Assembly: GCA_951406725.2 (NCBI GenBank)
Contig: CATOCA020000001.1
Coordinates: 2,170,001-2,234,000, forward strand
Source: Octopus vulgaris
Lineage: Eukaryota
Reading direction: 5' to 3'
DNA: 64,000 nucleotides
The translations under genes were made by a program, and so were the position numbers. A model generated the notes under the pieces. That model worked only from the letters and a program-made list of their open reading frames with translations, was not told the DNA's origin and did no database searches. Positions 9,332 to 44,261 of the stretch are shown one piece after another (position 1 is the stretch's first letter; each line of letters opens with the position of its first letter).

Positions 9332-9460
9332 AAAATATAGTACATATGTTGTGTAATGTCTGTAGTACATAGTTTATGATGTATTTAGTATTTCCAAACA
9401 AGAATATTATTGACAGTGATGTATATATATATATATATATATATATATATATATATATAT

Positions 9461-9920
9461 ACACGTTTGTATGTCTGTTTATCCCCCGACACCGCTTGAC
9501 AACCGGTGCTGGTGTGTTCATGTCCCCGTAACTTAGCGTTTCGTCAAAAGAGAAAATAGATTAAATACTAGGCCTACAAAAAATAAGTATTGGGTTCGAA
9601 TTTCGCGAATAAAGGCGCTGCTGCGGCATGGAATATATATATATATGTATATATATATATATATATATATATATATATATGTGTGTGTGTGTGTGTGTGT
9701 GTGTGTGTGTGTGTGTGTGTGTGTGTTTGTAATGTCTGTTTATTTCTCGAACATCGTTGGACAACGGGTGCTGGTGTGTACAATTCCCCGAACTTAGCGG
9801 TTCGGGAAAAGGGACCGATAGTTTAAATACTAGGCCTACAAAGTATAAGTCCTGGGGTCGATTTGCACGAATAAAGGCATTGCTCCACCATGGCCGCAGT
9901 CAAATAATTGAAAAATTAAG
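9461..9920 (+). mobile_element. Two diverged SINE 3' halves in tandem (mirror copy ~43730-44166)
   Basis: CGCTTGACAACCGGTGCTGGTGTGTT...TACTAGGCCTACAAA...CATGG occurs twice, separated by TA/TG tracts. Confidence 0.8.
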
Positions 9921-10449
9921 TGTGTAAAATAGAAAATAACCAGAAAAGTTTATATTCTTTTAACTACACCAGTAAGGGAGATAACTGAAAATCAACTTTT
10001 AGAGTTACTTCCCTTGACATATTGATAAAAGGCATGACAGTTTAAGATGTAGGCGCGTTTGTTTTTGATGCGAAGGGCACACTTGCATTCGCGCAGGAAG
10101 ATACAAACATACGCATGCAAATTTTCTGCTGTTCACTTTAACAAATAAACATTATAATTTACATTTAATTACACCCGAAAACTATGTAAAGTACTCACCA
10201 TATCTAGTACTACCCTTTGGACATGATCAGGTTTTTATTTTGTTTTAGATAGTATATATGCGTATGTGGGTATATACACGTGTATATGTATGAATGCATG
10301 TATTTCTGTATATAAATATATATATATATATATATATATATATGTATTTATATATATATTCATAAATTTATAATTTTATATATATATATGTAGGTATATA
10401 CCTATGTATATATATATATATATATATATATATATATATATATATATAT

Positions 10450-39377: not shown

Positions 39378-40344
39378 ATATATATATATATATATATATA
39401 TATATATATATATATATATGTATGTATGTATATATGTATATATATATATATATGTATGTATATATGTGTATATATATATATATATGTAAATATGTATGTA
39501 TATAAGTGTATATATATATGTGTATATATATATATATGTATGTATATATATATATATATATATATATATATATGTATGTATATATATGTATGTATATGTA
39601 TATATATATGTATGTATATGTATATATATATGTATGTATATGTATATATATATGTATGTATATGTATATATATATGTATGTATATATATATATATATATG
39701 TATGTATATATATATATGTATGTATATATATATATATGTATGTATGTATATATATATGTATGTATATATATATATATATGTATATATATATATGTATGTA
39801 TGTATATATATATGTATGTATATATAAATATATATATGTATGTATATATATGTGTATGTACATATATTTATTTATGTGTATATGTATATATATATATATG
39901 TATGTGTGTGTGTAATATATATATATATATATATATATATATATATATATATATATATATATATATATATGTATGTATATATATATATATGTATGTATAT
40001 ATATATGTATGTATATATATATATATAAATGAAAATAGTAATGCAATACGAGAGTATTGCTTTCCAGTAAAGGATAGCCCGTGAGGGTAAAGTTATACAT
40101 TAAAGTAAATAAATGGTACAACGAAGCACCGATATCTACTGGAAAATAGCGAACGTAATAAATACGACGCTAATGTATAGCTTCACTGCGTATGTACTAT
40201 ATATACATATACATATATATATATATACATATACATACATATATATATACATATACATACATACATATATATATATATATATATATATATATATATATAT
40301 ATATATATATGTGTGTGTGTGTGTGTGTGTGTATATATATATAT

Positions 40345-43315
40345 AACTTAGAATAACTTAGAAAGGTTTTGGCCAGTATTGGCCCAGGCCATGTCTAACT
40401 TAATAGAACCACCTAGCGAAGTCTTTCAATTCAGGATTTGGGCACCAAGGCCCATTCGAGCAGAGAGTTATTGTTTGCGGAGACATATCCGGGTGTGGCT
40501 GGTTTGTCCGGGACTGTTTGATGGAATTTGTCCAAAGAATTCTTGTATTTTGTGTGGTCAGTTTCTTTTTTGACGTGTCCTGGTGTAATGTTGAAGAGAG
40601 CGGGTCCAATTGAGGTGAAATAATTGTGCCGTATTGTTGTTATGTGATGCGATTTAGATTTTTGTTGTGGACGGATGGCACGTTGTCCAAGCCTTGGATG
40701 TATTTTGAAGGTGATGCCAACATCATTCGGACAGTGCTGATGGAATATTTTCCACATCATACAGATAATGTAGCGTTCACGGTGTTGTTGGAGTGAATAC
40801 AGTTTCAGCTTCTCTAGTCTACCCCAGTAGTCAAGGTCTGACATGCCATCTATCTTTTTTGTGATTGACCTTTGGGGAGCTTCAATTCTCATAATATTTT
40901 GTTTCGTGTAGGGAGACCACTGTGGACAACAGTATTCAAGGTGGGGGTCGGGCAAAAGTGAAGAAGAGAAGGATAATGGTGTGGGAATCTCTCGACTGGA
41001 AGGTTCTGAGAATCCAGGAACACATTTTACGGGCCATGTCAAATTTGCTGCTTATATGTGTAGCCCAGCTTATGTTGCTGTCCACTGTTACTCCCAAGTC
41101 TCTGATGTTGTTGGATGCCATGAGAATTTCTCCAGAAGGAAGGGAGTATGGGAGTTTCAGAGCGTCCTCCCTTCCAAAGTGGATCAGTTCGAATTTGTCT
41201 ACGTTTAGCAATATGTTGTTCTTTTCCGCCCATTGAAGGCTTATTCGGTCATCCACGCCATTGATGACCTTCTGGAGCTTGGAATCATCAGCGAAGGTTC
41301 TGATGTTACTGTGTTTGATGGTGTCAGTAATATCATTTATGTAGATGATGAAGAGAAGTGGGCCCAACACAGTGCCTTGTGGGACACCACTGCTGACTTT
41401 GGCTGGGCTGGATTTGACTCCTTCGACTACAACATGTTGGGTTCTGTTAGACAGGAAGCACTTGATCCACTGTAGCAGCTTTCTAGTGACACCAATATTA
41501 GACAGCTTTCTCAAAAGGATCTTATGATCAAACTTGTCAAAGGCCTTGCTGAAATCAAGGTAGATGACATCAGTGTTGGAACCCTCTCCCAAGGCTCTCA
41601 AAATGTCATCAAAATGATGCAGTAGCTGCGTCAGGCAATCCCTTCCATTACGGAATCCATGCTGGTTGGAGTTCAGCATATCATGACTCTCAAGGAAGTG
41701 AGTCATACGCGATCTCAGCACTCTCTCAAATACCATAATGATATGAGAGGTGAGTGAGATTGGACGGTAATTCACGGCAAGCGATTTGTTTCCTTTTTTG
41801 AAAACTGGGAATACAAACTGGGATAGGTCTTCTGGTATATATCCAGCATCCAGTGAGTTCCGCCACAGATTGGCTTGAGTGGGTGCAAGTTGGTGTTGAC
41901 ACATCTTCAAGACACAAGCAGGGAACCTATCGGGACCTACTGCTGATTTATGCTTCATTTCCTTTATTGCTGCTAAGACATCAGGAGCGCCAAAGGTTAT
42001 GTCCGATAAAGTGTATTGGCGAGTAACATCACTGATACAGCCCAGATCAGTCATATCAGGGTTGCTGAAAACAGAGCAGTATTGTTTCTGCAATATCTCT
42101 CCCATGGTTTTGGCATTGTCTTGAAGAGTACCATTTTCATCAATCAGAGGGCCAACAGTAGAACCAGTGACTCTGTGTATTTTTGCAAATGAAAAGAACA
42201 CTTTGTGATTGAGTTTGATCTTCTCAATGGCCCAGGCCTCTTCAGCTCTTCTCTGACTATTGATGATAGACATCATGTTGTTTTGGAGTTTATGTTTTTT
42301 AATCTCTAGCGACGAGATGGCAGTCAGGTTGGTGTGTTGCTGTTGACAGTATTTCAGCTCGTTGATTTTTTTTGTTAATTCTTTTAATTTTCCTGATGAG
42401 ATATTTTCTATTTCTAGGGATTCGACACTTAGATTTGTTTGCAGATCTTAATGGGGTGTGGTTTGCACATATGTTCGTAATGGTGTCTACAAATGACTGC
42501 CAGGACTTTTTGATGTTAGTGGGTGTGTATGTGTGCGTGAAGGACCAATCGACTTGTGCAAGATCATTATTGATCGCTTCCCAGTTTGCATTGTGGAAAT
42601 CCATAGTGTCAAATGAATGAACAGGAGGGATGACATTTGTTTTGCATTTTGGCCGGTGAAATCTCAGATCACAGAGAACCATGTCATGATCAGAGAGTAA
42701 AGTTTTCTCCACTGCAATATTGTGGATAGTATCAGTGTGATTGCTGAAAATTAAGTCTAAGACGTTTTTGTGACATCTCGTTGGTTCGAGCACCAGTTGG
42801 GACAGGAAGAAATCATCCATGAAGTCAAGAAGCGATTCCACTGCCTCCCTGTCAGGGGTTGAGAGAGAAGAACCTGGCGGCAGAATGTTTGTAGACCAGT
42901 CAACCCCGGGAAGGTTGAAGTCTCCCATCATTAAAATGTTGTCAGGTTGACACTGCTGAATGAAACACTTTATGTTGTTGAGGCATTCCTTGAAGCATGG
43001 TAGGGGCGTTTGGGGTGGTCTGTAGAGCCCAACTAGTGTGAAGTTGTTGGTTTGACTGAATACAGCGACTGCTTCGCAGTATCCATTGGAAAGTATGTTC
43101 ATAGCTTCTGTTGAGAATGAATCATGAACATAAATGGCAGTCCCACCCTTTCTTCTGCCAGCACGATCAGCACGAATGGCTTTGAAATTTTTAACTTTCA
43201 CCTCGGCTTCCAAGTGGAGGTTACTAAGATGGGTTTCAGTGAGGACGAAGAAAGGGATGTGGTTTGGATGGGCATCGACCCAGTCCTCCAGAAATTTTAT
43301 CTTCCATTTTTTAGT
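40345..43315 (-). mobile_element. CR1-clade LINE family A, mirror copy
   Basis: ORFs 42299-43333, 40936-42276 and 40431-41042 match the left copy. It shares the A-run frameshift after the APE domain and has a private in-frame deletion (SDLLAVVQ region). Confidence 0.95.
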
Positions 43316-44261
43316 ATATATATATATATACATAGGTATATACCTACATATATATATATAAAATTATAAATTTATGAATATATATATATACATACAAACA
43401 TATAAATAAAAACCCGATCATGTCCAAAGGGTAGTACTAGATATGGTGAGTACTTTACATAGTTTTCGGGTGTAATTAAATGTAAATTATAATGTTTATT
43501 TGTTAAAGTTAACAGCAGAAAATTTGCATGCGTATGTTTGTATCTTCCTGCGCGAATGCAAGTGTGCCCTTCGCATCAAAAACAAACGCTCCTACATCTT
43601 AAACTGTCATGCCTTTTATCAATATGTCAAGGGAAGTAACTCTAAAAGTTGATTTTCAGTTATCTCCCTTACTGACGTAGTTAAGAGAATATAAACTTTT
43701 CTGGTTATTTTCTATTTTACACACTTAATTTTTCAATTATTTGACTGCGGCCATGGTGGAGCAATGCCTTTATTCGTGCAAATCGACCCCAGGACTTATA
43801 CTTTGTAGGCCTAGTATTTAAACTATCGGTACCTTTTCCCGAACCGCTAAGTTCGGGGAATTGTACACACCAGCACCCGTTGTCCAACGATGTTCGAGAA
43901 ATAAACAGACATTACAAACACACACACACACATATATACACACACACACACACACACACACACACACACATATATATATATACATATATATATTCCATGC
44001 CGCAGTAGCGCCTTTATTCGCGAAATTCGAACCCAATACTTATTTTTTGTAGGCCTAGTAATTAATCTATTTTCTCTTATGACGAAACGCTAAGTTACGG
44101 GGACATGAACACACCAGCACCGGTTGTCAAGCGGTGTTGGAGGGATAAACAGACATACAAACGTGTATATATATATATATATATATATATATATATACAT
44201 AGCCCCCCACACACATATATGTATATATATGTTTGTGTGAGTGTGTGTGTGTGTGTGTATG

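Follow-up and report, generated by a model that had tools for sequence, protein, structure and literature searches.

The window, a stretch of 64,000 nucleotides, contains a large palindrome with a Penelope-like element (PLE) at its centre (Table 1), as the original prediction had described. Self-BLAST and alignment of the arms (A, left; B, right) show a single collinear inverted match, which runs from 9426/44201 to 24586/28722 and encloses a 4.1-kb spacer. The arms start at the inversion junction of the PLE and extend beyond both of its long termini (23229, 30094). This much had also been foreseen; however, what follows the termini is not plain target flank, as had been supposed, but a chimeric junction.

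Table 1. Features of the palindrome and its central element (positions in the window).
Feature	Position	Strand	Source or remark
Left arm (A)	9422..24586	+	arm alignment
Right arm (B), inverted copy	28722..44201	-	arm alignment
Spacer, unique part of the PLE (3' UTR, ORF, 5' region)	24587..28721	.	
(TA)n, left arm end; junction to left outer flank common to 7 other copies, C31	9422..9461	.	
LINE (APE + RVT_1, broken), in multi-copy module	10451..13453	+	
LINE (APE + RVT_1, broken), shared with paralogs C, D, F, J	14400..17489	-	
Arm-to-arm conversion tract, A and B identical over 439 bp and sharing 4 derived sites not in C	17050..17488	.	
5'-truncated LINE (RVT_1)	19456..20699	+	
Flank X, proximal: different repeat, 247-bp inverted ends of unequal length, in (TA)n	20701..23059	.	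mirror 30260-32564
Relic of the PLE short terminus, 16 bp, next to (TA)n and mirrored flank X at a derived junction	23113..23128	-	
Flank Y piece, 57 bp (start of tandem-unit array, intact in paralogs D, K)	23129..23185	-	
PLE (putatively Hydra-like), main body, long terminus at 23229	23229..28722	-	
843-codon open frame: RT (DKT, YRDD), Asn-rich linker, CxCX5C, C-terminal GIY-YIG-type endonuclease	25868..28399	-	
Partial-tandem piece, 42-43 bp (long terminus), 5' end of body	28681..28722	-	
Inverted 5'-truncated PLE segment ending in long terminus	28722..30094	+	
Hammerhead-like motif (CUGAAGA ... GAAA, long stem II), PLE 3' repeat	29626..29735	+	z -4.47
Mirror copies: Y piece 30146-30202, short-end relic 30203-30218	30146..30218	+	
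(TA)n, right arm end; junction to right outer flank common to 6 other copies	44166..44201	.	

With microsatellites left out, the arms differ by 118 substitutions in 10,613 aligned sites (1.1%), which are scattered over the PLE segment (8/1239), the short LINE (15/1609), the second LINE (30/3051), the distal LINE (45/2968) and the distal SINE part (11/671). Between the two arms, a stretch of ~690 bp near 38,690-39,370 is found in the right arm only, and the same insertion is present in paralog C; the other length differences are a 24-bp indel, a 47-bp indel and microsatellite lengths. Mirror open reading frames differ at 7 of 396 and 8 of 259 residues, close to the earlier estimates of ~7 in 380 and 9 in 304. 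Scattered substitutions, unequal microsatellites and private indels had thus been correctly anticipated, as had the conclusion that the arms copy one ancestral unit. A distal-to-proximal gradient of divergence (56/3639 vs 61/6875, p=0.003) was dropped as main evidence, as its split point was picked after viewing the data and heterogeneity over all 8 segments gives p=0.17.

The arms are composed of nested repeats, and no host gene was found in them; therefore, the direct biological effect at the locus is probably small. Both arms are members of a segmental-duplication family, and both outer ends are module boundaries common to other copies. The six other copies that share the right junction are distributed over C31 (two) and C5, C18, C20 and C28 (one each).

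The Penelope-like element and the ends of its family

On its motifs and its (TA)n targeting, the central PLE is best regarded as Hydra-like only. Its single predicted ORF combines a reverse transcriptase (RT), with YRDD at aa 329, and, at its C-terminus, a GIY-YIG endonuclease, with VY...YIG at aa 725-741. The DKG motif is altered to DKT (aa 91), a CxCX5C linker is present, as are CxxC and CxH around the conserved E and N (aa 705, 803 and 831), and CCHH is absent, with 1 cysteine between the GIY and YIG equivalents. The N-terminal motif is RWR, both in another PLE copy (L006) and in the out-of-frame N-terminus of the window PLE. A Pfam search with the PLE protein gave no domain above the cut-off and a solved-structure search gave no relative; PF01541 is present in 26-50% of the members of the nearest Atlas clusters, where listed. 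The original prediction rightly placed an inverted structure made by a PLE at the centre but called the PLE near-intact, which it is not, because its first ~48 codons (start near 28539) are not in frame with the other 843, the frame being broken near 28,400. Core-like hammerhead motifs in the PLE have a stable stem (z -4.47) and give 0 Rfam matches at E<=1. (TA)n adjoins the PLE termini in the window, as it does at most of 20 loci examined. Compared with L006, the PLE has a dN/dS of 0.16 overall and 0.06 in the RT; therefore, the distance of 9-11% to other PLE copies separates subfamilies, and dating of the insertion from this distance was rejected.

Inverted insertions of this family have one long and one short end in 17 of the 17 scored, namely all 7 with both ends in view among the 20 loci and all 10 pairs of adjacent inverted copies scored by their coordinates; L013, one of the 7, ends 5 bp before the short end. 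The window insertion has two long ends. Inside its inverted segment the short-end position is 29919 (mirror 23403), 175 nt in from the long terminus. According to the original prediction, the palindrome would be a one-off rearrangement and not a mechanism if no other family copy had mirrored flanks. This refuting outcome was obtained: where both ends of another inverted insertion could be viewed, mirrored or paralogous flanks were found in 0 of 7 cases, which come from 20 loci and are a small part of the family, and a C4 pair of inward-facing PLE copies is likewise without a mirrored flank. A 973-bp match at L013 was rejected as a second mirrored-flank case, being a local repeat with at least 4 nearby copies, 2 kb from the PLE's inverted end.

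Junctions, paralogs and mosaic ancestry

Outward from each long end, the order is 57 bp of flank Y, the 16-bp short-end relic and the mirrored flank. The relic matches the PLE short terminus and abuts (TA)n like genuine short ends. There are exactly 5 occurrences of the PLE-Y junction (A, B, C and D on C31; K on C28) and exactly 3 of the Y/short-end junction (A, B and C), whereas D and K run from the PLE into intact Y. These junctions, together with the end rule, do not support the earlier claim of a joining of two native PLE 3' ends to duplicate copies of a single target flank. Nor is it supported that the PLE duplicated 14 kb of host DNA in the manner originally stated, since the arm ends are not new junctions and the long end is joined to a Y that is intact in D and K. 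Beyond flank X and beyond flank Y lies the same LINE-LINE-SINE module (seen in the window and in D), and the region is rich in inverted paralogs without the PLE (F, J and others). The searches revealed neither an empty site, with X beside Y and no PLE, nor any copy whose short end is still intact on X, and a search upstream of the Y arrays in F and J likewise gave no empty X-Y site.

Paralog K corresponds to the reverse strand of the window with one 14.5-kb deletion. In K the right outer flank and the distal LINE (as far as 12527) are followed by the PLE, from 26704 up to the long end, and then by Y; therefore, a module lay inverted 5' of the PLE while Y was intact. Reading K as a plain PLE insertion into the distal LINE was rejected, as the best 40 of 2547 candidates did not include the remainder of that LINE on C28.

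The arms are mosaic, and each has closer relatives elsewhere than its partner arm. For instance, in the PLE segment B differs from K at 2/957 and from C at 2/955 sites, vs 7/957 between A and B. At 14428-15950, A-J (5/1523) and B-C (6/1522) are closer than A-B (15/1523), and at 10460-11400 the A-C comparison gives 2/941 vs 14/941 for A-B. Across several kb, B is within 0.2-0.6% of C. In 3011 sites of proximal X, private changes number 12 in A, 7 in B and 10 in C.

Origin of the palindrome

From the observed anatomy, copy distribution, junctions and mosaic ancestry, we infer an order of events and a repair pathway in which the 16-bp relic would be the original second end of this insertion. Most likely, the insertion of the PLE was a normal one, and fold-back copying and conversion between the arms were guided later by the 1.2-1.4-kb inverted repeat of the element. 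This two-stage history is favored because of the end rule, the relic, the occurrence of PLE-Y at 5 vs Y/short-end at 3 places, the structure of K, the mosaic arms and the conversion tract. A fold-back event, one of three options in the original prediction, fits the data, and PMC7999016 describes fold-back priming at inverted repeats close to a break as an established route to large palindromes. In the first stage, ordinary and PLE-made, a Hydra-like PLE would have inserted at (TA)n within a segmental-duplication cluster in the form usual for its family, as a full body plus a short partial tandem plus an inverted 5'-truncated copy, its long end on Y and its short end on X. The second stage would be host DNA repair, with the PLE serving merely as passive homology. 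Upon a break 57 bp into Y, repair may have folded back or switched template onto the other arm of the PLE's inverted repeat; copying would then have started 16 bp before the short end, traversed X and, by homology, reconnected within the LINEs of a paralogous module. Next, the other arm would have received a copy of the long end and the Y piece, and later conversion and crossing-over with paralogs could have made the arms mosaic.

Several observations count against the two-stage history. It calls for two or more copying steps. PLE-free Y units have no (TA)n tract at the Y site, and hence some rearrangement must have occurred earlier or at the same time. In proximal X, outside one tract, A and B are not sisters excluding C, although a simple fold-back would predict that they are, unless C split off at about the same time. 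The copies also span a narrow range of divergence (K and the window spacer have 14 mismatches in ~2,200 bp; D-A, 6/953), and therefore divergence does not show the second stage to be much later than the insertion. Because the searches gave neither the empty site nor a short end still intact on X, the starting state is a reconstruction and not an observation. Late insertion of the PLE into a ready (TA)n-centred palindrome was rejected: the PLE segment is not significantly less diverged (8/1239 vs 110/9374, p=0.11), and the Y/short-end junction requires the PLE to have been present first.

It is unlikely that the PLE itself made the fusion, with the priming of one insertion at two (TA)n sites apart from each other (on sister chromatids or in two paralogous modules), the long end at Y and the short end at X, the cDNAs joined head-to-head and the arms later evened by host conversion. 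If this were true, the PLE machinery itself would create inversion and palindrome junctions, and the 16-bp relic would be its footprint. Such a fusion would agree with the common module beyond X and Y, the inverted module 5' of the PLE beside an intact Y in K, the failure to find an empty X-Y site and the similar age of all copies, and a PLE protein is able to cut and extend DNA on both strands, initiates at two internal sites and is a predicted dimer (PMC11167929). On the other hand, paralogous or mirrored flanks are seen at none of the 7 comparable insertions, the abundance of PLE-free inverted paralogs means that the inverted pair could predate the insertion, and the 14 kb would still not have been copied by the PLE reverse transcriptase. 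An inverted insertion whose ends lead into non-adjacent loci would be evidence for a PLE-made fusion. The end rule (~175-nt tail) also offers a cheap genome-wide test, in that an inverted insertion with two long ends would be a rearranged one. Quite unlikely as well is non-allelic crossing-over between PLE-bearing paralogs, in which a deletion would yield a PLE-Y57-relic-X unit, with the relic from a second tiny insertion; the unit would be duplicated, and crossover of the ~1.2-kb inverted segment with the 3' end of another copy would join units head-to-head. The PLE 3' end in five copies, the closeness of B to C and K rather than A in the PLE segment, the outer flanks that differ at a common module boundary and the star-like A/B/C divergence in X are consistent with this course of events, but the relic requires a separate origin and K is not simply explained.

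A mis-joining in the assembly of two haplotypes or paralogs via the PLE inverted repeat is improbable, even though the ~1% arm divergence and the private indels could be allelic, B and C are close, and near-identical paralogs are numerous on C31, a contig of 12 Mb that is rich in repeats. Reads give no confirmation, as raw Illumina runs X15-X17 (~3% of each) gave low-complexity partial matches only (120/125, 3/3 and 0 reads); the X12 contigs, a fragmented set, gave short pieces only. Against an artefact, the mirror ends in outer flanks that each accompany the same module in other copies, and among the matches listed it does not resume within 100 kb on either side. The inversion junction at 28722 is unique in the genome search and only ~1.5 kb from the X junction, a distance that long reads can span, and 227 contigs for 2.8 Gb suggest that long reads were used. 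Furthermore, A and B share a conversion tract against C, and there is no N in the window or in the adjoining 200 kb. A very long 3' transduction, also offered originally, in which a read-through transcript with 14 kb of flank was reverse-transcribed twice, once per arm, is scarcely credible and is largely refuted by the shared outer junctions: the arm ends are module boundaries found in 7 and 6 other copies, where they are continuous with the outer flanks. PLEs can mobilise host DNA framed by terminal repeats, according to PMC3846280, and (TA)n is present at both arm ends; however, the captures published there carry cargo between the terminal repeats and not outside. PLE reverse transcription starts within the RNA, so that 3' extensions are not copied in vitro (PMC11167929), no whole-PLE source closer than 91% was found among the best 40 of 1376 candidates, and the arms are not each other's closest relatives.

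Relation to known systems

A canonical PLE insertion has a partial tandem (pLTR), an adjacent inverted 5'-truncated copy and a 'tail' at one end (PMC8557442; PMC3846280; PMC11167929). The window PLE likewise has a body, a 43-bp partial tandem, an inverted 1.37-kb segment and (TA)n targets, and its family shows two alternative ends. In contrast, its tail is ~175 nt (canonical, 30-40) and is present at both ends, with the short-end relic 57 bp plus (TA)n further out. The window PLE resembles the Hydra clade of PLEs with a C-terminal endonuclease, as outlined in PMC8557442, in its DKT, CxCX5C, CxxC and CxH around the endonuclease E and N, lack of CCHH and (TA)n. It differs in RWR (RWK in the clade), in its Asn-rich RT-EN linker and in its length of ~5.5 kb with a 2.6-kb 3' region, the clade being 'generally <3 kb'. 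PLE terminal repeats are also associated with duplicated host DNA in the host-gene capture of Adineta vaga, for which PMC3846280 gives cargo between pLTRs, a target-site duplication and an empty allele, whereas in the window the duplicated DNA is outside the termini and has many PLE-free paralogs.

A literature search, with most subscription journals outside its reach, found no description of a large palindrome centred on a PLE. The locus is a natural case of a large palindrome whose history is legible in a junction relic and in paralogs retaining earlier states. It also suggests that host repair in repeat-rich genomes has a ready palindrome seed in the inverted structure that PLE insertions routinely form. 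Large palindromes in segmental-duplication clusters, with arm-to-arm gene conversion, are of the type found on the primate X and Y chromosomes. The palindrome in the window shares with these long inverted arms, a spacer, conversion tracts and paralog exchange, but its arms are nested repeats with no host gene found and their identity (~99%) is lower than in the primate cases. Butler, in 1996 and 2002, reportedly dealt with fold-back priming at inverted repeats and large palindromes. The fold-back palindromes in PMC7999016 resemble the one in the window in having a short pre-existing inverted repeat and spacer at the centre, a mirrored flank and a non-homologous junction just outside the repeat; in the window, however, the repeat is one retroelement insertion, the setting is an assembled genome and not a selected cell line, and the copy ends by homology in a paralog with no dicentric chromosome. 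The structure is most likely an inverted-repeat-seeded palindrome in a segmental-duplication cluster, with a pre-existing repeat at its centre, conversion and exchange with paralogs.

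Anatomy and setting of the palindrome

Self-comparison of the window yields a single collinear inverted match, running from 9426/44201 to 24586/28722 and flanking a 4.1-kb spacer, which bears out the inverted duplication that the original prediction had claimed from sequence. With microsatellites left out, the left arm (A) and the right arm (B) differ at 118 of 10,613 sites, with a divergence of 0.65% in the part belonging to the Penelope-like element (PLE) and up to 1.5-1.6% distally. The arms consist of nested repeats: two SINE-like pieces, three LINE bodies (Pfam matches RVT_1 or APE), long (TA)n tracts, and a repeat with 247-bp inverted ends; no host gene was found within them. 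The latter repeat lies in the mirrored flank, X. Its ends, both in (TA)n, are unequal (one is ~60-75 bp longer), and many copies exist in the genome, often paired in inverted orientation. A second PLE-like family may have left it as a truncated inverted insertion. The locus lies on contig C31, which is 12.0 Mb long; the assembly as a whole comprises 2.8 Gb in 227 contigs. The inversion junction at 28722 occurs once in a genome search.

Other repeats accompany the palindrome (see table). Paralogous copies C and D share a ~690-bp insertion, which contains an internal hairpin; another element is itself self-inverted. The satellite at the window's start reaches ~51.5 kb further upstream (fetched stretches L035-L040), totaling ~53.6 kb of 94-bp units that are about 98-99% alike.

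Locations of features (window positions unless a contig or fetched stretch, L, is named)
Feature	Location	Remark
Left arm A	9422-24586	
Spacer	24587-28721	unique PLE part
Right arm B	28722-44201	inverted
Asn-rich linker	~26250-27000	ORF aa ~470-700
Tail between long and short ends	23229-23403, 29919-30094	
Repeat in X	20701-23059	mirror 30260-32564
~690-bp insertion	38690-39370	right arm
Self-inverted element	54172-54478	307 bp
94-bp satellite	1-2136	
SINE-like repeats matching the 94-bp unit	9504, 9769, 49045, 50123, 54664	80-90%; dispersed
Copy K deletion junction and 24-bp deletion	12527-12553	distal LINE
Satellite cut in copies C and D	L073 2183-9315, L077 1-1266	
Copy C	C31:9.55 Mb	PLE-side start of Y; Y/short-end junction
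Copy D	C31:2.69 Mb	PLE-side start of Y, then intact Y
Copy K	C28:8.65 Mb	PLE-side start of Y, then intact Y
Inward-facing PLE pair (L157/L158)	C4:99.44-99.47 Mb	
Distal-module relatives near contig ends	C5:147.42-147.44 Mb	C5 is 147.55 Mb
	C2:215.2-215.6 Mb	C2 is 215.60 Mb
	C13:51 kb	
	C3:72 kb	

The element and its termini

The marks listed for the Hydra clade (PMC8557442) fit the window PLE, with RWK replaced by RWR. By these motif marks the element appears Hydra-like. Its first ~48 codons sit in another frame. The linker between its RT and endonuclease is 48 aa shorter than that of L006, a near-full copy elsewhere, and recalls the N-rich inserts described for Adineta vaga Penelopes (PMC3846280). 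Among the best 40 of 1376 candidates scored, the other near-full copies are 88-91% identical to the window PLE and mostly ≤0.5% from a neighboring copy. With a dN/dS of 0.16 between the window PLE and L006, the distance to these copies reflects subfamily divergence, not age. An independent insertion of the window's own subfamily, ~2% different, is present on contig C29. Copies of the main subfamily lie 0.0-0.5% from their nearest neighbor, and by sequence this subfamily looks recently active; 3 of 29 copies (L006, L014, and L018) have open frames of 955-962 codons.

PLE insertions are often accompanied by a truncated copy in inverted orientation, and only one end carries a tail (PMC8557442); this tail is the stretch separating two internal sites at which reverse transcription starts (PMC11167929). 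In the window's family the long and short ends are ~175 nt apart, much more than the tails of 30-40 bp given in the literature consulted. Of 29 near-full copies fetched, 20 were inspected on both flanks. Seven of these show an inverted insertion with both ends visible (including L013, which reaches to within 5 bp of the short end), and all seven combine one long and one short end; the remaining 13 have no inversion in view or exceed the fetched DNA. Likewise, each of 10 adjacent inverted pairs, identified by coordinates, has one member that begins at query 1-2 and another that begins at 170-176. The window PLE has long ends at both sides, an anomalous symmetry that points to copying after insertion. 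In none of these seven insertions does a mirrored flank adjoin the PLE ends. Elsewhere, an inward-facing pair of PLE copies ~23 kb from each other, with 97% identity over 3.9 kb, has a long end on each member and no mirrored flanks.

Junctions and paralogous modules

Outward from each long end follow (TA)n, 57 bp of a second flanking sequence (Y), a 16-bp exact match to the PLE short terminus, (TA)n, and X. Y is a unit of a tandem array that is also present in the PLE-free paralogs F and J. Genome-wide pattern searches find exactly five sites where Y begins on the PLE side (A, B, and copies C, D, and K) and exactly three with the Y/short-end junction, whose overlap is only 1 bp (A, B, and copy C). 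Since D and K continue into intact Y, Y was the long end's first partner, and the junction leading to X is derived.

The left outer junction is common to seven other copies, all on C31, and the right one to six, on C31, C5, C18, C20, and C28; therefore, neither arm end was made when the palindrome formed. Copy C holds the left outer flank, a whole arm, and 1.26 kb of PLE end. A 184-bp satellite interrupts the PLE 3' segment at one identical base in copies C and D, ~100 bp from the start of the window's inverted segment. Copy K reproduces the reverse strand of the window, starting in the right outer flank and following it as far as 12527; there it switches to the PLE body at 26704, from which it proceeds through the long end into Y. 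Its deletion junction nearly coincides with a 24-bp deletion that the right arm alone carries. Some relatives of the distal module lie near contig ends, suggesting subtelomeric exchange.

Judged from their site patterns, the arms are mosaic. In the PLE segment, B is nearest copies C and K (2/955 and 2/957, vs. 7/957 to A); in 14428-15950, A is nearest J (5/1523, vs. 15/1523 to B); and distally A is nearest C and I. Proximal X, which a genome search finds only in A, B, and copy C, has mostly private changes (12, 7, and 10, respectively, in 3011 sites). Four derived sites are common to A and B, all inside one identical 439-bp tract, and two to A and C. Divergence among all copies in the PLE part is only about 0.2-1%, and so does not separate the stages of the history proposed below.

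Origin and relation to known structures

The simplest account using all the evidence, and probably the correct one, is a normal PLE insertion followed by inverted-repeat-guided repair from the other side and conversion. In a cluster where paralogous modules lie inverted, the PLE would have inserted with its short end at X and its long end at Y, a starting state that genome searches did not find. Its inverted repeat would then have aligned the two sides, and a break in Y could have been repaired from the opposite side, with copying that began just inside the short end and finished by homology in the LINEs. Conversion would have carried the long end back to the other arm, and exchanges with paralogs would have followed. 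We infer this order of events from the junctions. It is established that palindromes can arise through fold-back priming at inverted repeats (PMC7999016).

Fusion of two separate targets by a single PLE insertion would account for X and Y leading outward to the same module, and fits a PLE protein able to cut and extend both strands; however, a second case has not been seen, and we regard this as unlikely. Crossing-over between PLE-bearing paralogs, slightly less likely still, agrees with the mosaic ancestry but accounts less simply for copy K and the junction relic. An assembly mis-join is improbable. A long 3' transduction, here of 14 kb, was originally offered as one route to the arms; it conflicts with the outer junctions common to other copies and is highly implausible.

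The palindrome's center is a known PLE architecture. PLE-mediated gene capture (PMC3846280) differs from the window case in that the captured cargo sits between the terminal repeats. No PLE-centered palindrome is described in the literature searched (subscription papers and supplements lie outside it). Taken as a whole, the structure belongs to a known type, the palindrome seeded by an inverted repeat within a duplication cluster.
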